Below, in pieces: positions 30,090-44,193 of a DNA stretch of 64,000 nt. Source of the DNA: Methylocaldum sp. (lineage in GTDB: Bacteria > Pseudomonadota > Gammaproteobacteria > Methylococcales > Methylococcaceae); the NCBI RefSeq assembly GCF_035627495.1, contig NZ_DASPLO010000012.1, positions 591-64,590 of the forward strand, in the 5' to 3' direction. Both the position numbers and the translations under genes were made by a program. The notes under the pieces are model-generated. The model was not told the origin of the DNA and made no database searches. It was given only the letters and a program-made list of their open reading frames with translations. Within the stretch, counting starts at the first letter, position 1. Every line of letters starts with the position of its first letter.

Positions 30090-30585
30090 GGAAGCAACCT
30101 CCTCGACACAAAGGCATTCCCGCCCGGATAAATGAATTGGGGCAAGACTATGGAGTCGGGCAGCAGGGCGAAAAGGAAGTTCTTCTTCTTGGAAGATAAT
30201 GAAGACAACCGATCCGTACTACTTCCAAGGCCCAGGAGTGAGTAAGCGGACAGAGGGATTATCTTTTAAATCAGACTAGTTTACTAGGAATTTTCCTAAT
30301 AGACTGTTTGGCGCCCGAAAGAATTCCCGTTAGGAGAAAGAGCTGATCTTCCTAATCGTTCCACTTTGTCCGTCCTCTTGCTCCGGAACGGAAAAGGGGC
30401 GCACTGACCCGCACTATCCGGTCGTCAGACGGTCTTGTGATATATGAGGGATAGGGACGCAGGAATCCGCAACGCCGGAATGCACGGCCGTCCGCTGCCG
30501 CATTCCCAATGGTTTGGTCCAGCCCGGCGGGATCAGTACCGGCACGCGACCTCAAAATCCGCTGAAGGAGCCGGAGGAAACCAGG

Positions 30586-31545
30586 ATGAATGAAGAAAGA
30601 AAGCCAAGTGCCGAATGGCCGCTGATGCAGGAAATGGGGATTACCGATCGGGAAATCGCCAGACACCAAGCGTTTTTGGAATTCGGCGACGAGGACATCC
30701 AGGAACTGATGAGCATCAATGAACTTGCCCAAAAGTATGCAGATCCCATCATCGAAGACTTTTACAAGCATCTTCTCTCGTTCGAGGAAGCCCGTGCGTT
30801 TTTTCCAAACCCCGAGCTCATCGAGCGTGTCAAGCGTGCGCAGAAAGCCTATTTTCGAAGGCTCACGCAAGGCGAGTACGATCAGGCTTATATTGAAGAT
30901 CGCCTAAAGATCGGCGCGGTTCACGAGCGCATCGGCCTGCCCGTCAAGCTGTACTTGGGGATGTACACCTTCTACCTGAGAGCCGTCGCGGCTCGACTTT
31001 TCGAGGCGTATCGAGACGCGCCGGAAAGAGCGCTGGAGGCTTATCTCTCCTTGATGAAAGTGGTTTTTCTGGACATTGGCCTTGCGATCGACACGTACAT
31101 CTACCGCCGTGAGCAGCTGATCCGCCAGCAGCAGGAAGCCATGCGCGAACTCCCTACCCCGGTACTTCAGGTCCGCGATCGGCTGCTGATCCTGCCGATC
31201 GTCGGCGTGCTGGAATCGCATCGCGCCCGCCAGCTCACCGAGCAGTTGCTCAACAGTATCAGCGCCACCCGAGCGAAAGTCGCGATCCTGGATATTACCG
31301 GTGTGCCGATTGTGGACTCCAAGGTGGCCAACCATCTCCTGCAGACGGTCAGCGCTGCACGGCTCATGGGAACGACCGTGATCCTGACCGGCTTATCGCC
31401 CTCGATTGCCCAAGCGCTGGTGGTGCTCGGCATGGACCTGAGCCCGGTCAAAACCACGGTCGACCTGCAGAGCGGTCTTGAAGAGGCGGAACGGCTGCTG
31501 GGTTACAAGCTGATCCCTGTCGGAGAGGGGATGGCCCAGATGTAA
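30586..31545 (+). CDS. rsbR: stressosome sensor RsbR-like: globin-coupled sensor domain + STAS
   Basis: Protoglobin-type N-domain (ITDREIARHQAFLEF..., IGAVHERIGLPVKLYLG). C-terminal STAS (LILPIVGVLESHRA..., DITGVPIVDSKVANHL). Confidence 0.8.
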   Translation: MNEERKPSAEWPLMQEMGITDREIARHQAFLEFGDEDIQELMSINELAQKYADPIIEDFYKHLLSFEEARAFFPNPELIERVKRAQKAYFRRLTQGEYDQAYIEDRLKIGAVHERIGLPVKLYLGMYTFYLRAVAARLFEAYRDAPERALEAYLSLMKVVFLDIGLAIDTYIYRREQLIRQQQEAMRELPTPVLQVRDRLLILPIVGVLESHRARQLTEQLLNSISATRAKVAILDITGVPIVDSKVANHLLQTVSAARLMGTTVILTGLSPSIAQALVVLGMDLSPVKTTVDLQSGLEEAERLLGYKLIPVGEGMAQM

Positions 31546-31563
31546 CGCGGACCAAGCCTCTTT

Positions 31564-31941
31564 ATGAAAGCGCCAATTCTGAAAATCGGCCCCTATCTGA
31601 TCGCCTCTCTTCAGGCCGAGCTGACCGATACCGATTTGCTGGAATTGCAGGACGCCCTAGTGGAGCAGGTGGGCCGTTTTCGCTCGCGCGGCGTCATCCT
31701 GGACGTGACCACGCTGGACGTCATGGATTCCTTCGCGACCCGCACCTTGCGCAACATCGCCCAGGCGGTCGGATTGCGTGGCGCCGACGCGGTGATCGCG
31801 GGCATCCGGCCCGAGGTGGCGTTGGCCATGGTGCAGTTGGGTTTGGATCTGCGACTTTCCTGCGTGCGAACCACGCTGGATCTGGAGGAAGCACTGGCAA
31901 TTCTTGATCATGAAAGCAAAGGATCTGGCCGCCGTGGCTGA
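31564..31941 (+). CDS. rsbS: stressosome scaffold RsbS (STAS)
   Basis: Single STAS domain with the phosphorylatable Ser context LDVMDSFATR. Confidence 0.85.
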   Translation: MKAPILKIGPYLIASLQAELTDTDLLELQDALVEQVGRFRSRGVILDVTTLDVMDSFATRTLRNIAQAVGLRGADAVIAGIRPEVALAMVQLGLDLRLSCVRTTLDLEEALAILDHESKGSGRRG

Positions 31942-32335
31942 CGAAGTGCGCGTGATGATCCAGTCGGATGCCGACATCGTGCTGGCCCGCCAGCAAGCGC
32001 GCGGGCTGGCCAAGGAGCTGGGATTTTCGGCCAGCAACCTGGTCGTGATCGCGACCGCCCTCTCCGAATTGGCGCGCAATATCGTCCAATATGCTCAGTG
32101 CGGAGAAATCCTCCTGAGCCGAATCGAACACGGAAACCGCCGCGGATTCGTGATCATCGCCCGCGATCAGGGGCCGGGTATCGCCGACATCGAACGGGCC
32201 ATGCAGGACGGCTACTCGACGGGCGGAGGATTGGGATTGGGCCTGCCGGGGACCAAGCGGCTGATGGACGAATTCGAAATCACCTCCGGTGTCGGCCAAG
32301 GCACTACCGTGAGGGCCACGAAATGGATGCGTTGA
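31904..32335 (+). CDS. rsbT: RsbT serine kinase (GHKL ATPase)
   Basis: ALSELARNIVQYA, ARDQGPGI, GGGLGLGLPGTKRLMD. Overlaps the rsbS end. Confidence 0.85.
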   Translation: MIMKAKDLAAVADEVRVMIQSDADIVLARQQARGLAKELGFSASNLVVIATALSELARNIVQYAQCGEILLSRIEHGNRRGFVIIARDQGPGIADIERAMQDGYSTGGGLGLGLPGTKRLMDEFEITSGVGQGTTVRATKWMR

Positions 32336-32943
32336 TCGAGCATGGCGTCGCTGCACGGGCTTTTCCCGGAGAAAACGTGTCGGGCGACCGTCCTATGGTC
32401 AAGCTCGTTCCGAACGGGGTGCTGATAGCAGCCGTGGATGGCCTGGGCCATGGCGTGGCGGCCGGCATCGCCGCCGGAATCGCGGTCGCCACGCTGGAAG
32501 ACCACGCCGGGGAGGAACCGGAAGCGCTGGTGCAACGCTGTCATCAAGTGCTGAAAGGCACGCGCGGTGTGGTGATGAGCTTGGCCTCCATCGACGTGCG
32601 CGAAGGAAAGATGGCTTGGCTGGGCGTCGGCAATGTGGATGGCCTGTTGCTGCGGACCGCCGGTTCGCCCCCGACGCGCGAGGCGCTGTTGATGCGCGGC
32701 GGCGTGGTGGGCGATCAGCTGCCGCCCCTGCGCACCGCGTATCTTCCCATCGCGGCAGGCGACCTCCTGATCTTCACCACCGACGGCATCCGCAGCGACT
32801 TCGCGACAAGATTGTCCCTCATCGATCCGCTTCTTCGGCACCAGGACGTGCAGGAGATTGCCGACCGCATTCTGGCCCGCTTCGGCAAGACGACCGACGA
32901 TGCGCTGGTGCTCGTCGCGCGCTACCTGGAGGCCGCTCCATGA
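32323..32943 (+). CDS. rsbX: RsbX-like PP2C phosphatase
   Basis: VSGDRPMV...AAVDGLGHG... and TTDGI motifs of SpoIIE/PP2C. Overlaps the rsbT stop. Confidence 0.75.
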   Translation: MDALIEHGVAARAFPGENVSGDRPMVKLVPNGVLIAAVDGLGHGVAAGIAAGIAVATLEDHAGEEPEALVQRCHQVLKGTRGVVMSLASIDVREGKMAWLGVGNVDGLLLRTAGSPPTREALLMRGGVVGDQLPPLRTAYLPIAAGDLLIFTTDGIRSDFATRLSLIDPLLRHQDVQEIADRILARFGKTTDDALVLVARYLEAAP

Positions 32944-34541
32944 ACGATACGTTGCGCGAGTTCGCGAAACACTATGCCTCGGAGCTGCGGAACTACCTGG
33001 CGGGCGCGGGGGAGGCCGGCCTACAGCGCGCTTATGAACTCGGACGTCTGGCAGTCGAATCCGGCCTGGGCGTGCTGGATATCGAATCGATTTACCGGGA
33101 GGCGCTGGCGTCCGTGTTGGAAGGCCTGCCTTCCGCCGAAGAGAGCAGACATACAGTGGCGATGGCGGCGGAGTTCTGGGCCGAGAGTCTCGCGCCTTTC
33201 GAGATGACCCATCGCGGCTTCCGCGAAGCCAACGATGAGCTGCGCCGGCTCAACCAGACGCTGAAAGGCGAAATCACGGAGCGCAAGCGCGCCGAGGCGG
33301 CGCTCCAGAAAGCCCATGACGACTTGGAACGGCGAGTTCGGCTCCGCACCGCCGAACTGGCGCAAGCCAATGCCGAGCTTGGCGAGGAAATCACCGAGCG
33401 CAAGCACTACGAGGCGGAGCTGCGCCTACACGATCGCGCCATCGAAGCGTCCAGCGTAGGCATCATTATCACCGATGCGAGGCAGCCGAATTATCCCATC
33501 ATCTATGCCAATCCCGCCTTTGCTCAAATGATAGGCTTTTCCCGGGAGGAACTGATCGGGCGCAATCCCCGCATTTTGCAGGGGCCGGACACCGATCCGG
33601 AAGCGATTGCGGAAATTCGTCAGGCCTTGCGTGAAGGACGCGACTGCCATCTGACCCTGAAGAATTATCGGAAGGATGGAACCCCGTTCTGGAATGAGCT
33701 GTTCCTCTCTCCGGTGCGGGACAACCAGGGCAATCTCACCCATTACATCGGCACCCAAACCGATGTGACCGAGTTGCGCCGGGCGGAGGAAGAGCGCCAT
33801 GAGATGGAAATCGCCAAACAGATTCAACTGTCCCTTTTACCCGGCTCACCCTTGCAGCTTCCCGGTGCCCTCATTGCCGGCTACTGCCTGCCGGCCACCC
33901 ATGTCGGCGGGGATTATTTCGATTATTTTTGGGGGCCGGACACCATCGATCTCGTCGTTGCCGATGTCTCCGGGCATTCGATGGGTGCGGCGCTGGTCAT
34001 GGCGGAAGCACGCAGTACTCTTAGAGCGGAGGCCCTGCACAGACAGCAGGCACAACACGGCCTAGCACGGGGAACCGGGGAAATCCTCCGCGCCTTGAAC
34101 GCCTTACTTTACGATGATCTGAGCCGGGCGGACCTTTTCATCACCATGTTCTATATGAAATACCACCGCGCTACCCGGCAGTTGAGCTACGCCAATGCGG
34201 GACACAACCCCCCGCTGCTGCTGCGTTGCGGCGAAACGGCGTGCCGGGAGCTGGATGCCGAGGGGCTTATCTTTGGGGTGATCAAGGAGGTGGCGTTCGA
34301 AGAGAAAGGCACCGTTCTGGACAAGGGAGACCTCGTGCTGCTCTACACCGATGGCGTAACCGAGGCACAGAACCCGGAAGGCAAGTTTTTCGGCGCCGAC
34401 CGCCTCAGCGAGCTCTTGGCCGCCCAGGGGGCAAATACGCCGCAGGAGATCATCAACACAATCATCGAAGCACTGCAGACCTTCTGCCGCAGCCATTCCT
34501 TCGCCGACGATGTCTCCATGGTGGTTCTTAAGGTCACGTAG
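32940..34541 (+). CDS. RsbU/RsbP-like output phosphatase: RsbU_N-like helical domain, coiled coil, PAS, PP2C
   Basis: ATGA overlap with rsbX. N-terminal YELGRLAVESGLGVLDIESIYREAL, coiled coil (RKRAEAALQKAHDDLERRV), PAS (IIYANPAFAQMIGFSREELIGRN), and PP2C (GGDYFDY, VADVSGHSMGAALVM, LLYTDGVTE). Confidence 0.8.
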   Translation: MNDTLREFAKHYASELRNYLAGAGEAGLQRAYELGRLAVESGLGVLDIESIYREALASVLEGLPSAEESRHTVAMAAEFWAESLAPFEMTHRGFREANDELRRLNQTLKGEITERKRAEAALQKAHDDLERRVRLRTAELAQANAELGEEITERKHYEAELRLHDRAIEASSVGIIITDARQPNYPIIYANPAFAQMIGFSREELIGRNPRILQGPDTDPEAIAEIRQALREGRDCHLTLKNYRKDGTPFWNELFLSPVRDNQGNLTHYIGTQTDVTELRRAEEERHEMEIAKQIQLSLLPGSPLQLPGALIAGYCLPATHVGGDYFDYFWGPDTIDLVVADVSGHSMGAALVMAEARSTLRAEALHRQQAQHGLARGTGEILRALNALLYDDLSRADLFITMFYMKYHRATRQLSYANAGHNPPLLLRCGETACRELDAEGLIFGVIKEVAFEEKGTVLDKGDLVLLYTDGVTEAQNPEGKFFGADRLSELLAAQGANTPQEIINTIIEALQTFCRSHSFADDVSMVVLKVT

Positions 34542-34586
34542 GGGCTGGCCACCGCCTCCATGTGGGCTAGAGCGTTTTCTGGTCTG

Positions 34587-34825
34587 GTGTAGCGCCCGCA
34601 TGGCGGGCACTACACGTCTTAGTCCCGTTCGGACGCCCCCGAGCATCGGAGTCCGGAACCGGAATCGCCCGAAAGGGGCGCGGCGACCGAGGCACACGGA
34701 GGTGCCTTCGGTCGGCCCCGGTGCCGGACGAGACGCGCAGGATCAGGGCGTCCGCCGGGTGTCCTTTCTTTTGGTTCCTTTTCTTTGGACAAGCAAAGGA
34801 ACCCGCGTGCGGGGCGGCTCCCCGC
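34587..34825. repeat. cluster of REP-like hairpins
   Basis: Four hairpins: GTGTAGCGCCCGC/GCGGGCACTACAC, GACCGAGGCAC/GTGCCTTCGGTC, GGTTCCTTT-N13-AAAGGAACC, and GCGGGG-N5-CCCCGC. Track ORFs across the cluster are artefacts. Confidence 0.7.
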
Positions 34826-35413
34826 TCTAAAACAAGATGCCGCGACAAGCGGCACCTTGGGGTATGCTTCCGGATATCGCTCATCGCTACATCTTACCGA
34901 AAAATGCTCTAGCTAGTTGTTTCCCATCGAGATTTGCGTATAAGGCTATGGGTTCAGACCCTCCACGATGTGAGGCCGGTCGGCAATAGTGGACGCCCTG
35001 GCGCGCAGATTTGATGCAGACGCATGCGGACTCCGGGATATCGAGACCGGTCTCAAAGGCGTAGAACAAGGATCTTTCCACTTTCGCCGAAAGCGCTTGA
35101 TCTCAACCGCCAGGGGTGACTACATACAGGTCATGAGCGTAGAGCAGATTGAAAGCCTTTCGAAGCTCTTGATCCCGCCGCTGTCTCAGAAATTCATACC
35201 GAACGCCGCGGGCCTCGCCCAGGCCAAAGGCTTTATTCCATTGGTTGACCGGGCAGGATCTTACCGATGCTCTCAGACAGACAGCCGGCCAGTTCAGGGG
35301 ACAGGTGACCGGTTTTGGCCGAAAGCGCCTATCAACGGATCGGCGGTTCGCGACCCATTCCGGTCATTCAAGCAGCACAGATAAACACTGTTTTTACTTC
35401 GAACAAGCCTAAT

Positions 35414-38400
35414 TCAATGTTTCTTAGTCCTTCTCCATTTTCGGCGACAAACGGACGTGGTCGAGGCTTGCTGTGGCGTGCGTTTGTCCAAGTCCAGCAA
35501 TATCTCGCGCGCCTGTGGGACGTTAAACTCCAGCATTCTCTCGAACAATGCAGTGCCCTGTGCCTGGTGGGGAGCACCTAAATCCTGGAGAACCAAGGCA
35601 ATGGTCACAAAGGACTCGCTCATTAAATAACGGGATGAGGCAATATTCCCCATATCCATTCCGGCGAAATCGAGAAGGATATTGCAAACCTTGTATACAC
35701 GTTCGGGTTCTACGTGAACAAGCTCTTCCAAACACTCACCCACGAATTCCGCCGATTGATAGCTAAGAATCGAGGGATAGTCGCAGAGGGTGTCGAGTAG
35801 TTCTCGGCTGGCCCAATCAGGAAGGAAACCTCCGAGACGGAAAATACTGGCAAGAGCCCTGAGGACAGCTTCATCCTGGTCTTCGAGCAGTTGCAAGAGA
35901 TAGCCATGAACAGTGTAGCGGTGCTGAGATTCCCGCCAAAGATGCGCTATCGAGTGAGCGACACCCACACGGACGGCACGTCGCTTTTCGTTCGTTTCAT
36001 CTCCATGGATGAGATCATTCAACCATTCGGCAATCCAGCATTCATCTGGGAACCAGACACGGCGCAGCATAACCAATTCGCCCATGCCTTGAGCGGCTGT
36101 CTCCCCGCCCTCTTTGAGCATCCTGTCTAACCAATGCTGGGCTACGTCCGGTTCGATCCAGTGCTGACAGTGCGCTAACAGATGCGCCCCTTCTAACGTA
36201 TCGAGGATGGACGGATAGGTTAGGAACAGCCCGTTCAGGAATGCTTGCGCACGGCTGCGGTCGGCGAGATGCAGCCACTGAAGATAGTGGAACATGGCGA
36301 TCCAGACGCGGGGAGATTCGGGGCGAAGCAGATGTCTTTGCAAGATGCTCAGCCAGTGATCCGTCCTAGGTGGCTGCGCAAGGAGACAGGCTTTCGACAA
36401 AGCCGCCAATATCGGGTAATTCCCATGCGGCAAGATCCTACCACCCGCAAGGTCCCAAAGCAGGCTGCCCTGCGCTTTTTTGCTTTCGTCATGCGACTCG
36501 CATGCCTCCTCTGAAGATTCGCCAGCGGGAGCAAGCCAAGTCTCCAGAATGCCGAACAGAGGTTCGGGCAAGGGATGATCGGCATCAACGGCCTTCTCCA
36601 CAGCCCTCGCTGCCGGGCGGCGGAAATGTTCACTGGCAAACCCTTTCTCTGCCAACTCCAAGATAAGACTATAGAACGCGTTGCGGTCATAGTTGGTTTT
36701 GGCCAAAGCCTCGAGGACATCACCCACCGGGATTTCGTTGTGTCCAGGCAGCATTTGCCGCACCAGCCGAACCGCACGCTCGGGGTCCCCTTCCGCCAAC
36801 TTTGCCAGCTCTCGCCCCGCCTGAATAGCTCCACCTTCCATCCTCTTTCTCGGATGGTCCCAACCGTATTCGTCCGTCAATTCGGAAAACAGGTTGAGTA
36901 CATCTTTATCTTGTGCGGCCTCCATCTGCTCGGCACTGACTCGGCTGCCGATCTCACGAAAACCTGAAAACCACATATCACGGTCATGGAGGTCAGGAAA
37001 AGCCCGTTCCTCTTCCTCCACATGGCGGCGGCAGATCGCGCTCATCCGTTCCCGTGGCAGGACCTTAAGCAACCGCAGCCTGTACTCCCGTGTCCAGCGT
37101 ATACGATTACGCCGAGTCTTAGCGTCATCATCCGGTACATGGCTGTAGCGGTTCCAACTCCGGAGAAGCTGCTCCAGACGCAGGAACTGCCCTGCGTCAA
37201 GGTGAGGGACCAGAACCTGTATCAGTTCCTTGGTGTTCCGATGAACGTCTGAATGTGAGCCTAGGACCAGTCGCCGTGGGTCCGCGCAAAGGAATTCGAG
37301 CGCAACATCGGGGTGGATTTTTACGATATGGGCCATGCCTTTCGCCAGGAGGCGCTGCACGAGCATGAGGTCGATTCCCTCATTGGCCTTCTGGAAGGCG
37401 AGAAAAGCGTCGGGCTGGCATTCCGCTAATTTTTCTACTGCCTGGACCATGGCGGTTAGGAAAGGCCGTTCGATGCGCGTTTCCCGTTCATCGTCAATGC
37501 CATCGATCAAGCTTAAGCCCTGTCGGTATCCCACTACGAAGAGATGAGCCTCCCGCGCAGTAGTGGTTATTACCTGTACGAACCAGGGCCAGACGGCATC
37601 TAAGAAGGCACCGGCGGCGGCTTCCGCCAGGGCGGGCAGGTCGTGCAACTCATATCCCTCCAGCAATTTACGACAACGTTTGAACTGGTTCGATTCTTGC
37701 CAGAGGTCCTGAAATGGGGTTTCGCTTTCTGCTACTTGAGTCTCCACGTGGGGTTCAGGCGGAAACTCCTTCTCCCACTCCCATCTGAACCAAGTCGCGA
37801 TCAACCGCGGAGCCTGTTCGGGCAGCTGCATGCTGACTACACCGGCCAGATGGTTCACGGCCCAAGCCGCCACATCGGTCCGGGTCAGAATGCGGCAACA
37901 GCGGTCCACTACGTCGGTCTGCCACCCACTGATATGCTCTAACACCCGCCAAGTGAGAACGTCCTTGTCCGCGTGGGGGAGCCAGTGGTCGTCGATCAGA
38001 TGGAGAACGCTGGGCTGATCAAAGTCGAGGGCTTTAATGAGGATGGGCACTACCGGCCATGCCTCCTGTGCTGACCTGACTATGATCATGGGCAGGTGAG
38101 TGGGCGAAAGCCGTGCAAACCAGCCCTGACTGCCGACTACGGCGGCAAGGATGCGGCTCTGATGCCAGGCATCATCGAACCTCTGGAAAAACAAGGCAGC
38201 TTCGGCAGGTTCAGGGTCCTGAAGCTGGCCTAGGAATTCGATCAACAACATGCGCAGGTGGAGGCGCAGTTCGGAATCCCAGAGTCGGCGGATTTCGTCC
38301 CGATAGGCGTGTCGGTCCACCGCTCGCATGTAGCCTAGAGCATGCCAGACTTGGGGACGTATACGTAGACTGTCTTGCCGCGCCAATACGGCTTCCATTA

Positions 38401-39721
38401 GTTGTCCGGCTGCGTCTAAGAAGGTTCGTGCTCGGACAAATTCAAACAGCGTCTGATGACGGAAACCGATACGTCCCCTTTCCTCAATCAGGACACCGGC
38501 CGCTTCCAGTTCCAGAATCACGGCATAGCGGTTCTCGAAGGCTGCCAGAGGCAGCCAAAGCACTTCCTGGTCCGCCATACGCTCGGTTAAGTCCAACAAC
38601 AGGCGACGGCGGTTGCCACTGGTATCACAAAGAACGGCCTGCTTCCACAGCGATTCAAGCATGTGCTGATAGCCTTGCAACAGCTCGGCCTCGTCGGTGG
38701 TCTTGATCAGACGTAGGAATGTATCTAGGGCATGTGGGGAGCGCAGATCCTCCCGCATGGTTTTATTCCAAGCCGCAGTCCGAACTCCATGGGCTTGCAG
38801 GGCAGCGTCTACCTGTTCCCAAGCAGGCAGAGCCAAGGTCAGGAGTTCAGCCTCTAGATTTCGCAGGCGCGGATCGTGGCGATGCTCGAACACTCGGCAG
38901 GAGGCTACCACATGCACGTTATCCAACCCGGCTAGATCGCGGATCAGTTCTAGCGGAACACGCAGGCGACTGGAATGCTGTACCACCAAGTCGGCCAGCG
39001 CATCGAGCTGATCCAACAGCACTACCACCTTGCTCTCCCGCGCCAGGGTACAGATACAATCCACGGCGGCCGCGGGTAGGCCAAGGTATTCCCCTAAGCC
39101 GTTCTGATCCTGAATAGATTCGGGCAGAAAATCTAGCTTGATGCCGAGAGCTGGAATGGAAGCTGCTTCGAGTTGCTGCCCCAAGCGGGCTAGCAAGGCC
39201 GACTTGCCGCAGCCAGGCTCGCCCACCAGCAAGGTCAAAGAGTGGATATCACCTTCGATGCGTTGCATCAGAGCATTCAGCTCCGGGCGTTCCAGCCATT
39301 GACCGTTTGACAGGGAGACCTGCCAAGTCAGCAGATCGGAGGATGCGCGGTGGAACAGGTTACGCAGCTCGTCAGTGGTAGGTGCCGGATTGCGTAGCTT
39401 GTCAAACGCTCGGTCAATACCGGTGCTGAGAGCACTGATTAACCCCGCTTCGTCAGAAAATACGCCAGGCCGTCGATCCCTGCTGACCTCGTCACGAAAT
39501 GCCGTGATCCTTTGCAGCTTTTCAGGATGATTCATATCGGACAAGGCAACATCCGGAATGCTCGTGCGCAGCAAGACAATCGTCGGAATCCCCTTAGCCT
39601 TCGCTCGGCGATATTCCAGATGGGTGATCGAGAGGTTCTCTGGATTATCCGCCTCGGGCTGGTGGCCATAACGGTGTCCAAGTATGAGTACGTAAATGTC
39701 GCAACCCTCAACGTCTTCCAA
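35414..39721 (-). CDS. STAND-type P-loop NTPase with DUF4062-like N-terminus and >1000-aa helical-repeat C-terminus (body after an in-frame amber)
   Basis: CDIYVLILGHRYGHQPE...ITHLEYRRAKAKGIPTIVLL is the second half of a DUF4062-type domain. Walker A LLVGEPGCGKS, Walker B VVVLLDQLDAL, and VVASCR follow, then a long Leu/Arg/Ala-rich helical region. Confidence 0.75.
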   Translation of the reverse strand: MEDVEGCDIYVLILGHRYGHQPEADNPENLSITHLEYRRAKAKGIPTIVLLRTSIPDVALSDMNHPEKLQRITAFRDEVSRDRRPGVFSDEAGLISALSTGIDRAFDKLRNPAPTTDELRNLFHRASSDLLTWQVSLSNGQWLERPELNALMQRIEGDIHSLTLLVGEPGCGKSALLARLGQQLEAASIPALGIKLDFLPESIQDQNGLGEYLGLPAAAVDCICTLARESKVVVLLDQLDALADLVVQHSSRLRVPLELIRDLAGLDNVHVVASCRVFEHRHDPRLRNLEAELLTLALPAWEQVDAALQAHGVRTAAWNKTMREDLRSPHALDTFLRLIKTTDEAELLQGYQHMLESLWKQAVLCDTSGNRRRLLLDLTERMADQEVLWLPLAAFENRYAVILELEAAGVLIEERGRIGFRHQTLFEFVRARTFLDAAGQLMEAVLARQDSLRIRPQVWHALGYMRAVDRHAYRDEIRRLWDSELRLHLRMLLIEFLGQLQDPEPAEAALFFQRFDDAWHQSRILAAVVGSQGWFARLSPTHLPMIIVRSAQEAWPVVPILIKALDFDQPSVLHLIDDHWLPHADKDVLTWRVLEHISGWQTDVVDRCCRILTRTDVAAWAVNHLAGVVSMQLPEQAPRLIATWFRWEWEKEFPPEPHVETQVAESETPFQDLWQESNQFKRCRKLLEGYELHDLPALAEAAAGAFLDAVWPWFVQVITTTAREAHLFVVGYRQGLSLIDGIDDERETRIERPFLTAMVQAVEKLAECQPDAFLAFQKANEGIDLMLVQRLLAKGMAHIVKIHPDVALEFLCADPRRLVLGSHSDVHRNTKELIQVLVPHLDAGQFLRLEQLLRSWNRYSHVPDDDAKTRRNRIRWTREYRLRLLKVLPRERMSAICRRHVEEEERAFPDLHDRDMWFSGFREIGSRVSAEQMEAAQDKDVLNLFSELTDEYGWDHPRKRMEGGAIQAGRELAKLAEGDPERAVRLVRQMLPGHNEIPVGDVLEALAKTNYDRNAFYSLILELAEKGFASEHFRRPAARAVEKAVDADHPLPEPLFGILETWLAPAGESSEEACESHDESKKAQGSLLWDLAGGRILPHGNYPILAALSKACLLAQPPRTDHWLSILQRHLLRPESPRVWIAMFHYLQWLHLADRSRAQAFLNGLFLTYPSILDTLEGAHLLAHCQHWIEPDVAQHWLDRMLKEGGETAAQGMGELVMLRRVWFPDECWIAEWLNDLIHGDETNEKRRAVRVGVAHSIAHLWRESQHRYTVHGYLLQLLEDQDEAVLRALASIFRLGGFLPDWASRELLDTLCDYPSILSYQSAEFVGECLEELVHVEPERVYKVCNILLDFAGMDMGNIASSRYLMSESFVTIALVLQDLGAPHQAQGTALFERMLEFNVPQAREILLDLDKRTPQQASTTSVCRRKWRRTKKH

Positions 39722-39793
39722 GCAGCTCTCACAGACCGTCTCACTGTCGGGGGCGTAACTGTGGACAGGTTGATGCCCCGCAGTGATCAGCTA

Positions 39794-39859
39794 GTCCATG
39801 ACCGCCTGGCGTTCGGCTTTAAGGTCGAGAAGGGTGGAGGAGACGTAAACTGTAGCCAT
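39794..39859 (-). other. 22-codon N-terminal segment of the STAND gene, upstream of in-frame TAG 39791-39793
   Basis: ATG 39859 MATVYVSSTLLDLKAERQAVMD, then TAG, then LITAGHQPVHSYAPDSETVCESCLEDVEGCD... in the same frame as ORF 35414..39721. Together these read as one DUF4062-like domain. Confidence 0.65.
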
Positions 39860-40131
39860 CAGCATCTTTCTTGAGTGGAATGCTAATTATTCACTTAAAA
39901 GAGCTATAAATTGTATTTCCATCTTACTGTGGATTTAGGCTTGAGCGTCTGTTCCTGGCCCAGTCTGTCTAAAAACGTGAAAATCGAAAATCTAATGGAG
40001 AGACTCAACTGGTTTTTGCCTGAACCTCCTGCCGAGGTGGAGTCAACGATTAAGAATTCACCCGGTTTTGACAGGTTAATGGAGTAAATTCCACGTCAGA
40101 ATGGCTCGCTCGTGAGTTTTTACACAGCCTG

Positions 40132-40315
40132 GGCCGAATGCGGTCCCTCTGAGGCTGGAAATGACGTTAGGCCGCAAAGATCAAACCCGCTCATCAGAAG
40201 TCAAATACCCAGCTTTCCCGATCCAACTGCCGCTGCAGAACGATCCGGTGCGGCGGTTGGATCAGCAGGGTCCAGGTTTGCTGGTGGTTTCGGTAAGGCT
40301 CCTTTACCGATTTGA
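40132..40315. repeat. direct repeat copy 2 (partner 21513-21700)
   Basis: Covers 62 nt downstream of the RES stop plus the last ~120 nt of the RES gene. Same orientation as copy 1. Confidence 0.8.
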
Positions 40316-40919
40316 ACGGCTGTGGCGCCAGCACGGCCAGGCAGAAACCGCCGGGCGCGCGGACCGATTCATAGCGAATCAGACCGATGCCGGCTTCCCG
40401 TGCGTGTTCCGCCAGCAATTGCGTTCCCGCGTAATCGACAGGGTGCGTCCAGGATTCCCGATCGGAGGCCAGGGGCGGCGCTGAAAGATCGATGGCTTTA
40501 TGGGCGTCCACATGAAATTCGAACAGCGTCAACTCGACGCTCGCGGAGCGGCCCGACAAGCCTTCGCTATCCAGCCAAAACCGCAGCCGCCAGTAGCTGC
40601 ATTCGGCGCAGGCCGTTCGGCGGTCCTCGGCGCCGTAAAAAACGCCGGGGTCGGCGCGTCGGCGAAATTGCGACCCGCCCGGCAGCGGCCAATAGCGGAA
40701 AGGCGTTGCCAACAGCCAGTGCAAGCCGTGGGCCTCGACGGGCAGGCGGGGCTTGGCTTCATCGAGGATGTCCTCCAGCAGCGTCTGATCTTCCAGATTG
40801 CCCGAGGTCAGGTGCATGGTGGCGACCCGATGCTGGGCCTCCACCGCCCGCCAGCCGTTCCCCCGCCAAGGGCGGGACTCAGACGCGAGCGCGGTGGGCG
40901 TCCAGATATTCGCAGGCAT
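40194..40919 (-). CDS. RES-domain toxin
   Basis: GWRAVEAQHRV, ATPFRYWP..GSQFRR, GVFYGAEDRRTACAECSYW, and IGLIRYESVRAPGGFCLAVL give the R-E-S pattern. Overlaps the antitoxin gene. Confidence 0.85.
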   Translation of the reverse strand: MPANIWTPTALASESRPWRGNGWRAVEAQHRVATMHLTSGNLEDQTLLEDILDEAKPRLPVEAHGLHWLLATPFRYWPLPGGSQFRRRADPGVFYGAEDRRTACAECSYWRLRFWLDSEGLSGRSASVELTLFEFHVDAHKAIDLSAPPLASDRESWTHPVDYAGTQLLAEHAREAGIGLIRYESVRAPGGFCLAVLAPQPFKSVKEPYRNHQQTWTLLIQPPHRIVLQRQLDRESWVFDF

Positions 40920-41259
40920 GTATCAGGCCGTCGACGCGCTTGATGACCTCCATCGGCCGCTGTCCGTCGAAGGCGCGGTTGGTCGATTTCAACCAGCTTC
41001 GGGCCAGCTCGTCGTCGCCGCCTACCAGCGAGGACAGCGAACGATACAGGCGCACGAAATGGGCGGCCAGCTCCCAGGGCTTGCCGCCTTCGGGAAGGGC
41101 GTATCGGCCGTTCAACAGCCGGGAAGCGGTCGGTTGGCTGGCACCGATGATGCCTTTCAGATCGCTGGGACCCAATCCCAGGCGGCGAGCGGCCTCGATC
41201 ACCGCTTGAGTGAGGACGCGTGAGCGGTCTGTAGCAGGAGCGGAAGCCGAGCGTGTCAT
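40879..41259 (-). CDS. Xre-like/DUF2384 antitoxin of the RES toxin
   Basis: LGLGPSDLKGIIGASQPTASRLLNG (HTH), and the C-terminal ARSWLKSTNRAFDGQRPMEVI is typical of DUF2384. ATG at 41259 follows AGGGA; an alternative ATG is at 41274. Confidence 0.8.
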   Translation of the reverse strand: MTRSASAPATDRSRVLTQAVIEAARRLGLGPSDLKGIIGASQPTASRLLNGRYALPEGGKPWELAAHFVRLYRSLSSLVGGDDELARSWLKSTNRAFDGQRPMEVIKRVDGLIHACEYLDAHRARV

Positions 41260-41344
41260 GGTGTCGTCCCTCATTTGCTTGCCGATATATTTATTCTCAG
41301 GAATAAAATTATCACAAAATATCTTATGTGAATATCCATTAGAG

Positions 41345-41478
41345 GGCGGCGTTTGCAAAACCAGCCAGGAATTATTGGAACTCTTCATGCATCTACAGGA
41401 GCCCCCGCTTTCTCGATGCGAAAAATTCTCAACCGGCTGACAATCCGAACCTCGTTTTCCCTACTCAGAAGATTGGCC
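41345..41478 (+). pseudogene. frameshifted remnant of the modE linker region
   Basis: Nucleotide-level match to modE 5865-5988 (CCAGGAATTATTGGAACTCTT..., AACCTCGTTTTCC...). The ModE frame reads SQELLELFMHLQEPPLSRCEKFSTG* and then breaks. The HTH-coding part is absent. Confidence 0.7.
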
Positions 41479-41694
41479 ATGAAAGCAAGCGCGCGCAATC
41501 AGTTGAAAGGCATGGTCAAACATATACAAAAGGGCGCGGTGAATTCCGAAATCGTGATCGAATTGGCAGGCGGTGACTCGGTGGCCGCCACCGTAACCAA
41601 CGAGAGCGTGGATTCGATGGGACTCCGCGTGGGCGATACGGCGTGCGCCGTGTTCAAGGCGGGGTCGGTCGTTCTCGGGGTTGCGGCTTCTTAA
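41479..41694 (+). CDS. single-domain Mop/TOBE molbindin derived from a modE-like gene
   Basis: MKASARNQLKGMVKHIQKGAVNSEIVIELAGGDSVAATVTNESVDSMGLRVGDTACAVFKAGSVVLGVAAS corresponds to the ModE Mop1 start fused to Mop2. Confidence 0.75.
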   Translation: MKASARNQLKGMVKHIQKGAVNSEIVIELAGGDSVAATVTNESVDSMGLRVGDTACAVFKAGSVVLGVAAS

Positions 41695-41754
41695 CCGCAC
41701 TCTGTTGACTTACGGTCGGTATTCGCCCCCCTAACCCAGAAAGGCCAAAACCAC

Positions 41755-44193
41755 ATGGATTCGCTAGCCGTATTCTTCGATCAGCAAACCAGGCTTCACG
41801 GCTCCCGGACAGCCGTTCGCTACCGGCCGAGATATCGGACCATCCGCTGGAGTTACGACGAGTTGAGGGAGCACGTACTCGGACTGACGCAAGCACTGTC
41901 CGCACATGGCGTCGAATCGGGAGACCGGGTCGTTCTTTGCGCCGAAAACTCGCCGTACTGGGTCGCGGCCTTTTTCGCTATCCTAGCCCGTGGCGGAGTG
42001 GTGGTTCCGCTGAATCCGAAAAGCACACCGGACCAGATCAACCGGATCAGCAAGTCCGCCGAGCCTAAGCTCGCCCTGCTGTCGTCCTCGCTCGTCTGGC
42101 CCAATGAGGCCGTGCCTTTCTTGCCGGTTGATTCGGCCTACCCCATTGACGAAGCTGCGGCCATTCGGGATCGGACCATATTCGAGAAACCCGGCGAACT
42201 TGCCGAGATCATCTATACCTCGGGGACTACCGGCGATCCGAAGGGTGTCATGCTCTCTCATCGAAATCTCCTGGCCGATCTCGACGCCGTGGCGAAAGCG
42301 GTACCTTTGACGCCCGACGATCATGTCCTCACCTTGCTCCCGCTGTTTCACGTATTCGGTCAAATGACGAGCCTCTTGTGCTCGCTGCACAGCGGATGCT
42401 CGGTCACCTACCTCGCCGCCCCGACGACCCGCGCCATCCGCGAAGCCCTGACCCATACGCCGGCGACTCATCTGGTCGTGGTGCCCGAAGTGCTCAAAAC
42501 GATGATGGACCGTCTCGAAAGCCGGCTGGGCCGAATGCCGGGTTTTCTCCGGCGCGTGCTGCGCGACCGCATCCGCTCCCGCATCTCCGGCACGCTGCGG
42601 ACCATCGTGTGCGGCGGCGCGCCGCTCGATCCGACGCTCGAGGAAAAATGGTGGAACCTCGGCTTCGAAGTCCTGCAAGGCTACGGACTCACCGAAACGA
42701 GCCCCGTCATCAGTACGAACACCTCCGCTGCCCACCGTACGGGATCGGTCGGAAAACCCTTAGACGGAGTCGAGGTCAGGCTCGCTCAGGACAGCGAGAT
42801 TCTGGTCCGCGGCCCGATCGTGATGCACGGATACTATCGGGATGCTCAACGCACCGAAGCCGTTCTGGCCAATGGCTGGCTCAAAACCGAGGATGCCGGA
42901 CGATTCGACGAAGACGGATTTCTGTATGTTTTCGGGCGCAAGAAATACATGATCCTCGGACCGAGCGGCGAAAACGTCTTTCCGGAGGATCTGGAAGCCG
43001 AGCTGAACCGCGTTCCCGGCGTCATCGACAGCGCCGTGGTCGGCTTGCCGAAAGACGGCCGGACCATCATTCACGCCGCGCTCCTCTGCGAGCCTAACCA
43101 GGCTGCCGGCATCGTGGCCGAGACCAACCGTCACTTGGCGCCGCACCAACAAATCATGAGCTGGTCGGTCTGGCCCGAACCCGATTTTCCACGCTCCGTC
43201 ACGCGCAAAGTAAAAAAAGAGGAGGTCATCAAGAAACTCGGCAGCCAGCCTGCCAGCCAAGCGCCCCAAGGCGGACGGATCACGCCGCTCAAGCGGCTGC
43301 TGGCCGAGGTGACGCAAACCGATATCGGAGCCGTCGGCGATTCGACGCAAATCGTATCCGACCTGAATCTGGATTCTCTGCTGCGGATCGAACTGGTTTC
43401 GCGGATCGAGGACGAACTCGGGGTTTACGTCGAAGAAGTGCAAATCACGCCGGAGCTGACTGTCGCCGACTTGGAAGCGCTGGTGCAAAGCCAAAAGGGG
43501 CAAATGCCCAAGCTCGGCCGATATCCGCGCTGGTCGAACTCCGCCTGGGCCAGCCGATTACGTCCTTTGGCACAACAGATTCTCTTCCGCTGGTGGCTTC
43601 CGGCCTTTTGCAGGTTGCGCGTAGACGGCGAGGAGCACCTGGCGAACCTCCCGGAGCCCGTGATTTTCATGGCGAATCACCGCAGTTTCCTCGATCCCGT
43701 CATCGCAACCTGGGTCATTCCCGCAGCCGTTCGCTCGCGCCTCGGCATCGCGGCCGGCACCGAGGTACTTTACGGCGAGTACGGGTGGTTTGCGCCGCTG
43801 GCGGAACTCACGTTCAATTCCTTTCCGTTTCCCACCCGGGCCGACGAAAACATCCGGCCGGGACTCGATTATACCGGCCGCATGCTCGATGACGGCTGGA
43901 ACGTTCTGATTTTCCCCGAAGGACAACTGAACCGTTCCGAACGGCCGCTGCTGAGCTTGAAAGGCGGTACCGGTGTGGTCGCCGTCGAGATGGGAGTTCC
44001 CGTCGTTCCACTAGTCATCCAGGGGTCGGAGAAAATCCTGCCTCCCGGCGCGATCCTCCCGAAGAGACGGAGTCAAGTGACCGTGCGCTTTGGGCAGCCT
44101 CTACGTCTGGCGGGAGAGGGATACGCTGACGCAACGGCGCGCATCGAATCGCATCTGCGGCATTTACTGGGAGATTGGGAAGGAAGCGAATGA
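41755..44193 (+). CDS. tri-domain acyl-AMP ligase / acyl carrier domain / PlsC-type acyltransferase
   Basis: AMP-binding cores IIYTSGTTGDPKGV, YGLTETSP and GWLKTEDAGRFDEDGFLYVFGRKK. Carrier domain SDLNLDSLLRIEL. Acyltransferase motifs MANHRSFLD (HX4D) and IFPEGQ. Confidence 0.8.
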   Translation: MDSLAVFFDQQTRLHGSRTAVRYRPRYRTIRWSYDELREHVLGLTQALSAHGVESGDRVVLCAENSPYWVAAFFAILARGGVVVPLNPKSTPDQINRISKSAEPKLALLSSSLVWPNEAVPFLPVDSAYPIDEAAAIRDRTIFEKPGELAEIIYTSGTTGDPKGVMLSHRNLLADLDAVAKAVPLTPDDHVLTLLPLFHVFGQMTSLLCSLHSGCSVTYLAAPTTRAIREALTHTPATHLVVVPEVLKTMMDRLESRLGRMPGFLRRVLRDRIRSRISGTLRTIVCGGAPLDPTLEEKWWNLGFEVLQGYGLTETSPVISTNTSAAHRTGSVGKPLDGVEVRLAQDSEILVRGPIVMHGYYRDAQRTEAVLANGWLKTEDAGRFDEDGFLYVFGRKKYMILGPSGENVFPEDLEAELNRVPGVIDSAVVGLPKDGRTIIHAALLCEPNQAAGIVAETNRHLAPHQQIMSWSVWPEPDFPRSVTRKVKKEEVIKKLGSQPASQAPQGGRITPLKRLLAEVTQTDIGAVGDSTQIVSDLNLDSLLRIELVSRIEDELGVYVEEVQITPELTVADLEALVQSQKGQMPKLGRYPRWSNSAWASRLRPLAQQILFRWWLPAFCRLRVDGEEHLANLPEPVIFMANHRSFLDPVIATWVIPAAVRSRLGIAAGTEVLYGEYGWFAPLAELTFNSFPFPTRADENIRPGLDYTGRMLDDGWNVLIFPEGQLNRSERPLLSLKGGTGVVAVEMGVPVVPLVIQGSEKILPPGAILPKRRSQVTVRFGQPLRLAGEGYADATARIESHLRHLLGDWEGSE

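Follow-up and report, generated by a model that had tools for sequence, protein, structure and literature searches.

Gene locus and reading frame

The DNA analyzed here, referred to as the window, is a 64,000-nucleotide stretch of a Methylocaldum sp. contig (NZ_DASPLO010000012.1, positions 591 to 64,590; assembly GCF_035627495.1). Its minus strand carries a 4.4-kb gene that appears to encode a STAND nucleoside triphosphatase (NTPase) related to Avs7 and headed by a DUF4062 domain, with an in-frame amber codon near the start. The frame extends from ATG 39859-39857 to TGA 35416-35414 and holds 1,481 sense positions and one internal stop. It reads ATG, MATVYVSSTLLDLKAERQAVMD (22 sense codons), TAG 39793-39791, and then LITAGHQPVHSY..., with no further interruption. 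The mechanically listed open reading frame (ORF) at 35414..39721 (1,435 amino acids [aa]) begins at a TTG that corresponds to codon 47 of the full frame. An earlier reading of the letters alone, here called the original prediction, had proposed that the frame continues upstream of this TTG to ATG 39859, interrupted only by the TAG, and the translation bore this out. Coordinates of all features are collected in Table 1.

The start codon was assigned by comparison. All 12 DUF4062-headed loci that were read begin at the same Met as the upstream ATG. A second ATG six bases further upstream (39865) was found by DNA alignment to be out of frame in the most similar locus, that of Methylocaldum sp. 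BRCS4, and ATG 39859 was therefore taken as the start. The approximately 100 bp preceding the ATG are conserved between the two loci and presumably hold the gene's own promoter and leader; a sigma-70 consensus scan of positions 34500-40300 gave no sigma-70-like promoter. The gene has a GC content of 56.4%, whereas its 5-kb flanks have 60.4% and 59.5%, in agreement with the earlier impression that it is richer in AT than its surroundings.

The N-terminal head is a DUF4062 domain with a TIR-like fold

With the stop masked, residues 4 to 86 matched positions 2 to 82 of the 82-position Pfam profile for DUF4062 (PF13271) with an E value of 1.4e-21 and a score of 76.9 bits against a cut-off of 24.7, a match that depends on bridging the amber. 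Because the match runs across both, the amber and the TTG at codon 47 lie inside one domain. This agrees with the original prediction, in which the 22 residues before the stop and the next ~90 had been read as a single DUF4062 domain, placing the TTG "start" within that domain; by the Pfam match, the domain comprises the 22 codons and about 65 codons following the stop.

For structural comparison, an AlphaFold2 model was used of the head of the BRCS4 orthologue, which is 87% identical to the head in the window. The model had a predicted local distance difference test score (pLDDT) of 86 and showed alternating strands and helices, with position 23 near the end of helix alphaA (residues 10-26). 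Foldseek comparison with the PDB returned plant TIR domains as the top matches, namely 7xoz (RPPT-TIR), RPP1 (7crc), and RPS4/RRS1 (4c6t), together with nucleoside 2-deoxyribosyltransferase (2a0k), the CMP N-glycosidase BcmB (4jen), and SARM1. E values ranged from 2e-4 to 1e-3 and template modeling (TM) scores were about 0.5 to 0.6. The TIR/deoxyribosyltransferase-like fold for which a check had been proposed was thereby recovered.

Proteins with this domain have recently been assigned an activity. DUF4062 was described as a TIR-like NAD+ hydrolase (NADase) with a catalytic Glu, and small bacterial DUF4062 proteins named Swarozyc were reported to act in abortive-infection defense with the phage portal as the trigger (Osinski et al., bioRxiv 10.64898/2026.05.01.722283). 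In the same preprint, human TEP1 was found to be an active NADase, and DUF4062 was noted beside a NACHT ATPase in TEP1, NWD1, NWD2, and NPHP3. A second bacterial system, Evangelion, has an aromatic motif at the N terminus and a catalytic region of the form acidic-SYT...E-Y (Ibarra-Chavez et al., bioRxiv 10.64898/2026.06.25.731849). The statement in the original prediction that no DUF4062 member has a defined activity is consequently outdated, since both preprints describe NADase activity in phage defense (10.64898/2026.05.01.722283; 10.64898/2026.06.25.731849).

The window protein contains Y5 and the series S77-x-T79-x-x-E82-Y83. Among 55 DUF4062-headed orthologues, Y5, T79, and E82 were invariant and S77 was conserved in at least 90%. 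Motifs matching Y5, S77/T79, and E82 are reported to be needed for NADase-dependent defense in the published systems (10.64898/2026.05.01.722283; 10.64898/2026.06.25.731849). Judged by the motif descriptions, E82 would be the counterpart of the catalytic Glu at KpSwz E97 and Eva01 E87-Y88.

The NTPase module is related to Avs7

The head is followed by an NTPase module in which G213, G216, G218, K219, S220, D283, D286, R322, and H468 were invariant across 116 sequences. Positions 113 to 599 of a family profile matched residues 166 to 670 of SeAvs7 (9n00_A) with an E value of 3e-26, SeAvs7 being the one solved relative that the profile found (9n00_A/9n01/9yix). Profile-profile alignment against SeAvs7-like proteins with hhalign gave a probability of 99.8%. 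In a phmmer comparison, a family member with a Cap4-like head (P0068) was collinear with SeAvs7 from residue 1 to about residue 670 (E = 3.8e-34). Among ATP-site residues, T291/K292, D358, and R395 of SeAvs7 correspond to K219/S220, D283, and R322 of the window protein, and the winged-helix motif FGHQT aligns with FRHQT (H468).

The features expected of a STAND protein were found as Walker A and B motifs, an order of nucleotide-binding, helical, and winged-helix domains obtained from the collinear profile alignment to SeAvs7, and a tripartite architecture. By these alignments the NTPase would belong to the same clade as SeAvs7. The region also matched Pfam AAA (E = 7e-6); some orthologues carry a precomputed match to the NACHT profile PF05729, and the segments LLDQLDAL and VVASCR resemble NACHT motifs. 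The P-loop region had originally been described as STAND/NACHT-type on the basis of its Walker A, Walker B, and VVASCR segments, a description that the homology to SeAvs7 upheld. In the PADLOC collection, a partial match to PDC-M54A was obtained for residues 210 to 486 (profile positions 321-615 of 1,621; E = 2.5e-13), and the same partial match was seen with other head types of the family.

SeAvs7 is an antiviral STAND protein headed by a Cap4 nuclease; it binds the major capsid protein of the phage, takes up EF-Tu, and forms tetramers, and it does not function without its effector (Lee et al., bioRxiv 10.64898/2026.01.04.697583). Across Avs7, activation by the major capsid protein was reported, with EF-Tu involved in one clade, and the group was described as having 20 or more alternative effectors, a bilobed TPR sensor that also occurs in Dsr1, and 3,272 listed homologues (10.64898/2026.01.04.697583). 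An Avs7 query of that study, OJX47172.1, was not found among the cluster members of the present family. As a separate observation, a search with SeAvs7 residues 1 to 670 returned no identical sequence and no match longer than 1,172 aa; several matches of about 1,100 to 1,160 aa lay on long contigs, so either the word filter missed full-length proteins or variants with a shorter sensor exist.

The C-terminal region is a helical solenoid with a basic tail

An AlphaFold2 model of residues 522 to 1481 consisted of helices only, with a pLDDT of 88.8. The helical-repeat C terminus described in the original prediction is accordingly an alpha-solenoid of about 880 aa. Foldseek comparison of this model with the PDB yielded only generic HEAT/ARM solenoids (SF3B1, CAND1, and karyopherins) with TM scores of 0.2 to 0.35. 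The sensor alone, compared by hhalign with SeAvs7-like proteins, gave a collinear match of 259 columns in its N-terminal part (probability, 89%; E = 2.3e-6). After the last sensor helix, a tail of the form LD(K/R)RTP...RRRR (LDLDKRTP...RRRRxR) was conserved in all head types of the family; it was absent from the C termini of SeAvs7-like proteins, which end in ...WLKAVERP.

The same body carries different heads

The closest orthologue was the protein P0002 of Methylocaldum sp. BRCS4, with exactly 1,481 aa and 83% aa identity. It starts with MAKVYVSST... and reads ...VMNWLITAGHQPV across the site of the amber. More broadly, over 100 proteins, each 1,450 to 1,600 aa long, share the body (residues 173-1481) at 42 to 83% identity, and these proteins carry at least six head types. 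Besides the DUF4062 head of about 170 aa, the heads were TIR_2 (P0044); an alpha/beta-hydrolase/PGAP1/DUF7379-type, lipase-like head of about 293 aa; a head of ~250 aa with a weak Cap4-nuclease match and a D...(D/E)xK-like signature, MSIAARRSHRGDEYQ...VDDIV...QAKK; and two heads to which Pfam gave no annotation, one of 206 aa (P0094, P0099, P0106, P0110, and P0115) and one of 153 aa (P0006). The anatomy now described, together with the swapped heads in relatives, matches the Avs/bNACHT-type arrangement of effector, ATPase, and repeat sensor that had been suggested for this gene.

Bodies of this kind occur in more than eight phyla, having been found in Beta-/Gammaproteobacteria, Planctomycetota, Nitrospirota, Acidobacteriota, Verrucomicrobiota, Myxococcota, Chloroflexota, and Spirochaetia. 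The DUF4062-headed form was mostly betaproteobacterial, with the addition of Methylocaldum. One cluster member of 54 aa (P0122) was set aside as an unrelated fragment that is uninformative on the N terminus. The two heads that Pfam leaves unannotated have the sequences MGFSATVLRFLGSAISALRPMLKQRYAERSAGK... and MTVKVLIAHAKGESELAEQLAEPITTAGYEV..., of which the latter appears TIR/flavodoxin-like by eye; both are candidates for new effector domains.

Codon 23 is a conserved tryptophan codon

The original prediction had asked which residue orthologues carry at codon 23. This codon was TGG in 12/12 DUF4062-headed loci read, and W23 was conserved in at least 90% of the 55 DUF4062-headed proteins, Trp being a single step from TAG. 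The closest orthologue, that of BRCS4, differs at the site only in having TGG where the window has TAG. On the alignment, the amber is a G-to-A transition that occurs in no other locus read and changes a conserved tryptophan codon; this conservation and the uniqueness of the TAG are observed directly.

Two special readings of the codon were discarded. TAG closes 6/22 long ORFs of the 64-kb window, which makes it an ordinary stop here and rules out reassignment of the genetic code, and a conserved recoding site is ruled out by the TGG found in all 12 orthologues. With the Trp23 codon changed to TAG, translation from the native ATG should end after 22 residues. According to the head model, a product initiated at TTG47 would lack beta1 (residues 3-8), alphaA (10-26), beta2, and part of alphaB, so that its effector domain could not fold; the invariant residues Y5, S7, and D12 would also be missing.

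The rest of the gene is well preserved. Compared with BRCS4, the ratio of nonsynonymous to synonymous substitution rates (dN/dS) was 0.21 overall (head, 0.23; NTPase, 0.12; sensor, 0.27), and no other stop or frameshift was found across the 1,481 codons. The lesion therefore arose recently in comparison with the split between the two strains, or it is not real. Most probably this allele lost its function only a short time ago and is a young pseudogene, and W23amber most likely abolishes the system in this genome. That the amber is both real and inactivating is considered likely.

The strongest competing account is that the TAG is not the dominant genotype, having arisen as a sequencing or consensus error or as a minority or strain allele fixed by metagenome binning, in an organism whose gene is intact. 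The origin of the window in a metagenome-assembled genome (MAG) is compatible with this, as are the otherwise flawless sequence under purifying selection and the occurrence of broken, possibly erroneous, frames in other members from long-read assemblies. On the other side, the public calls are all truncated consistently with the same stop: the JGI call (P0001) has 1,435 aa from the TTG, the NCBI call (HYE34071.1/WP_324872355.1) has 1,458 aa from a CTG at 39788-39790 directly after the amber, and the contig versions of JGI (72,983 bp) and of NCBI and Logan/ENA (72,970 bp) fit the same picture. A substitution error that creates a stop is, moreover, unlikely in a high-coverage short-read consensus, and costly abortive-infection genes are often lost through nonsense mutations. 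An artifact or minority allele is accordingly judged unlikely, and a real, inactivating amber is preferred.

In both the JGI and the NCBI call, the premature stop and the true ATG go unmarked. Broken frames were also noted in other members of the family (L036, L042, L045 from a Hydrogenophilales MAG, L058, and L061), and in one case the head (181 aa) and the body (1,310 aa) were separate proteins on one contig (P0284 and P0285). Several of these members come from long-read assemblies, in which errors and real pseudogenization look alike.

Comparison with known systems

The nearest known system is Avs7 (SeAvs7; PDB 9N00/9N01/9YIX). Both are tripartite single polypeptides in which the NTPase and sensor together span about 1,300 aa, and both show many interchangeable N-terminal effectors, including a Cap4-type nuclease (P0068 in the present family), and horizontal transfer. 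They differ in the head, which is DUF4062 here and a Cap4 nuclease in SeAvs7, in the basic tail found in the present family, and in the C-terminal sensor lobe, for which similarity was not detectable. Dsr1 shares the sensor of Avs7 and is triggered by a phage capsid protein (Lee et al., 10.64898/2026.01.04.697583). In the mechanism proposed below it would resemble the window protein as a big helical sensor coupled to an NAD+-degrading effector; by its description it is set apart by its SIR2 head and its lack of a STAND NTPase.

Swarozyc (KpSwz) and Evangelion (Eva01) share with the window protein the PF13271 domain, its TIR-like fold, Y5, and the motif S-x-T-x-x-E-Y (E82), and by analogy the expected output would likewise be NAD+ hydrolysis and abortive infection. 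In these small proteins the DUF4062 core is joined to a short auxiliary region, whereas here DUF4062 is followed by an NTPase of ~430 aa and a solenoid of ~880 aa. For KpSwz, the activator is the phage portal, acting through fiber/bouquet assemblies; here, NTPase-driven oligomerization would be expected.

Among eukaryotic proteins, TEP1, NWD1, NWD2, and NPHP3 have the same order of DUF4062 head, STAND/NACHT-type NTPase, and C-terminal repeats. Their repeats are WD40 or TPR, with TROVE in TEP1, and the NTPase in the window is closest to bacterial Avs7; the likeness implies no orthology. The resemblance to PADLOC PDC-M54A is confined to about 280 aa of the NTPase region, and PDC-M54 is a multigene candidate, whereas the gene in the window travels alone and has no full-length match to it.

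Proposed function

The anatomy, the homologies, and the fold of the head are observed in these comparisons; we infer the defensive role, the NADase activity, the trigger, and the presence of the TAG in living cells. By analogy with Avs7 and the small DUF4062 systems, the intact protein is very probably a defense STAND protein with an NADase effector. The reading preferred for this locus, which adds to that role the condition of the present copy, is of an Avs7-related single-gene antiviral STAND protein with a DUF4062 NADase effector that has been inactivated by W23amber; as a whole it is considered reasonably probable.

In the resting state, the protein would be bound to ADP with the sensor folded back on the NTPase, by analogy with SeAvs7, Dsr1, and the DUF4062 systems. 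During infection, the sensor would bind a conserved phage protein; the most plausible one, though still a guess, is a structural protein such as the major capsid protein. Binding of the ligand would release the autoinhibition and allow nucleotide exchange and ATP-dependent oligomerization, and the clustering of DUF4062 heads would then yield an active NADase. Hydrolysis of NAD+ would kill or arrest the infected cell, aborting the infection.

Several observations weigh against this interpretation. The NACHT profile (PF05729) stayed below threshold, with 19.7 bits where 26.7 are required (E = 8e-4), and the PADLOC scan gave no full-length model for the family. SeAvs7 (9N00) was not in the top 50 Foldseek matches of the sensor, in a library that ends on 2026-04-08 and may exclude 9N00, and the C-terminal lobe of the sensor had no similarity to the sensors of the six Avs7-like sequences compared. 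The 2026 preprints on Avs7, Swarozyc, and Evangelion report no tested bacterial DUF4062-headed STAND protein. Many neighbors of family members are housekeeping genes, leaving the defense context moderate. The public assemblies probably derive from one dataset and are compatible with a sequencing error or a minority allele.

As of 2026 the chassis, the effector, and the nonsense loss of defense genes are each already known, and the gene will hold little surprise for specialists after that year's preprints. The placement of a DUF4062 head on an Avs7-type chassis, as deduced from the domain matches, mirrors the architecture of TEP1 and NWD, a combination not reported as tested in the 2026 preprints. 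A TIR-like NADase head would be added to the effector set of this chassis. The locus would also be a case from nature in which one base change silenced a costly abortive-infection gene and the remainder of its 4.4 kb stayed pristine, and if a repaired allele were active, it could serve as a simple bacterial model for activation of a DUF4062 NADase by a STAND switch (compare human TEP1 and NWD1). For annotation, the public calls hide both the real start and the interruption, and the label DUF4062-STAND (Avs7-related) with premature stop is suggested.

Alternative explanations

A more far-reaching account, and an improbable one, sees in the family what TEP1 and NWD1/2, the DUF4062-NACHT proteins of eukaryotes, would correspond to in bacteria: a TIR-like NADase driven directly by a STAND oligomerization switch. 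Its sensor lobe, which differs from that of characterized Avs7 proteins, would recognize a new phage or nonphage ligand, with the amber as a tolerated, leaky attenuator.

Leakiness was also considered in its own right: the amber would be real, and read-through or reinitiation would keep a toxic effector at a very low level, resulting in attenuation rather than loss. The base following the TAG is C, and UAG-C is reportedly a weak termination context in Escherichia coli; the remainder of the gene is intact, and the NCBI start at CTG lies immediately behind the stop. TAG is nevertheless the normal terminator of other genes in the window, no tRNA gene was found in the 64-kb window and hence no suppressor tRNA was seen there, and 0/12 orthologues have a stop at codon 23. 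Products begun at CTG24 or TTG47 would be without the invariant residues Y5/S7/D12 and without beta1-alphaA. Such bypass is held to be improbable, and loss of function remains the favored consequence of the amber.

A further possibility is that the family is not antiphage at all and comprises housekeeping or signaling STAND proteins that use DUF4062 for nucleotide binding or signaling. Many STAND clades are indeed not defense related (Lee et al., 10.64898/2026.01.04.697583), many family neighbors are metabolic genes, and eukaryotic NPHP3 and NWD1 have nonimmune roles. The exchange of TIR, Cap4-like, lipase-like, and DUF4062 heads on one body is, however, typical of immune receptors. Homology to the experimentally validated SeAvs7, a patchy distribution across phyla with variable context even within one genus, and the recurrence of defense genes as neighbors point the same way, making a nondefensive role very improbable.

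Least credible is a head-less product from TTG47 or CTG24 that functions otherwise, as a sensor-only decoy or a dominant-negative STAND partner: the NTPase and the sensor are undamaged and every catalytic motif is present, and a GAGAG 6 to 10 nucleotides upstream of TTG47 might be a weak ribosome-binding site, but no orthologue has the shorter architecture, all relatives carry some effector head, neither CTG24 nor TTG47 has a conserved start or ribosome-binding site, and SeAvs7 needs its effector for function.

Genomic context

The gene travels alone. DNA identity to the BRCS4 locus was 86% and was confined to window positions 39960-35413, from about 100 bp 5' of the ATG to the stop; sequences beyond were unrelated, so that the gene forms a self-contained cassette in unrelated contexts of two Methylocaldum genomes. 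A search for flanking direct or inverted repeats as the mark of a mobile element gave only short matches at chance level.

Table 1. Features of the gene and its surroundings in the window
Feature	Position	Strand	Remarks
Whole gene	35414..39859	-	1,481 codons plus stop, one internal TAG; DUF4062-headed, Avs7-related STAND NTPase, W23amber allele
True start codon ATG	39857..39859	-	DUF4062-headed orthologues all begin M-A/T/V-K/R-V/I-Y there
In-frame amber TAG, codon 23	39791..39793	-	In place of conserved Trp codon TGG; orthologue alignment
TTG, codon 47	39719..39721	-	First canonical start after the amber; start of the JGI call; translation
Conserved 5' flank, ~100 bp	39860..39960	-	Moves with the gene; ~90% identical to the BRCS4 locus
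Head, residues 1-172	39344..39859	-	DUF4062 TIR-like domain (Pfam match to residues 4-86, 39602-39850) plus extra helices; Pfam, AlphaFold2, Foldseek
E82 codon (SITHLEYRR)	39614..39616	-	Candidate catalytic Glu of the NADase head; the same in all 55 DUF4062-headed proteins
STAND NTPase module, residues ~173-600	38060..39343	-	Linker, nucleotide-binding domain, helical domain, winged helix; family profile versus SeAvs7
Walker A GEPGCGKS, residues 213-220	39200-39223	-	Motif
Walker B VVVLLDQLDA, residues 278-287	38999-39034	-	Motif
Sensor-1 Arg322 in VVASCR (317-322)	within 38888-38914	-	Motif
His468 of FRHQT	within 38444-38473	-	Motif
All-helical solenoid, residues ~601-1457	35489..38059	-	Presumed ligand sensor; AlphaFold2 model
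Disordered basic C-terminal tail DKRTPQQASTTSVCRRKWRRTKKH	35417..35488	-	Low pLDDT, family consensus
RES-domain toxin	40194-40919	-	Pfam, E = 5e-31
Xre/MbcA/ParS-type antitoxin	40879-41388	-	Overlaps the RES gene by 41 bp
PAS-SpoIIE/RsbU-N phosphatase	32616-34541	+	Pfam scan
343-aa ORF, RsbR-like	30514-31545	+	By eye
125-aa ORF, STAS (RsbS-like)	from 31564	+	By eye
143-aa ORF, RsbT-like kinase	31904-32335	+	By eye

In the window, the gene is bordered by a PAS-SpoIIE/RsbU phosphatase on one side and, directly upstream on the same strand, by a RES/Xre-ParS pair. The latter is the RES-Xre toxin-antitoxin pair named in the original prediction, recovered here as a RES toxin with an adjacent Xre/ParS antitoxin; it is absent from the BRCS4 locus. 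RES toxins are NAD+-targeting enzymes, so that two NAD+-directed modules would adjoin at this position. Past the pair lie genes for a TOBE protein and an acyl-AMP ligase/acyltransferase and the core genes der-bamB-yfgM-hisS.

The left side of the island holds a stressosome-like operon (30514-34541, plus strand). The ~870 bp between it and the gene, on the gene's downstream side (34541-35413), contain no convincing gene; an ORF at 34989-35384 had no Pfam match, and an Rfam scan of positions 33500-42000 returned no match. The original prediction had also placed repetitive extragenic palindromic (REP) hairpins near the gene, a claim that proved weakly founded. The sole clear palindrome, the 29-nucleotide GTGTAGCGCCCGCATGGCGGGCACTACAC at 34587-34615, occurs once in the 64-kb window, and being a single copy it does not support the REP label.

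Across the family, 134 immediate neighbors at 36 loci were scanned. Many were housekeeping genes and a handful were of defense type, comprising GajA/AriA/PtuA/Old-type ATPases, TIR_2, ThsB-TIR, SAVED-TIR, Schlafen-AlbA2, AbiLi, subtilases, and DUF7379-CHAT. The defense-island signal in these neighborhoods was moderate. Beside a DUF4062-headed orthologue in a Sulfuritalea MAG, a 1,818-aa protein is encoded (L002:1395-6848, plus strand) in which DUF7379 (E = 6e-35) and a CHAT protease domain (E = 6e-34) were recognized along with a lipase segment resembling LCAT. Among the exchangeable heads of the STAND family, one is likewise of the DUF7379/PGAP1-like kind.

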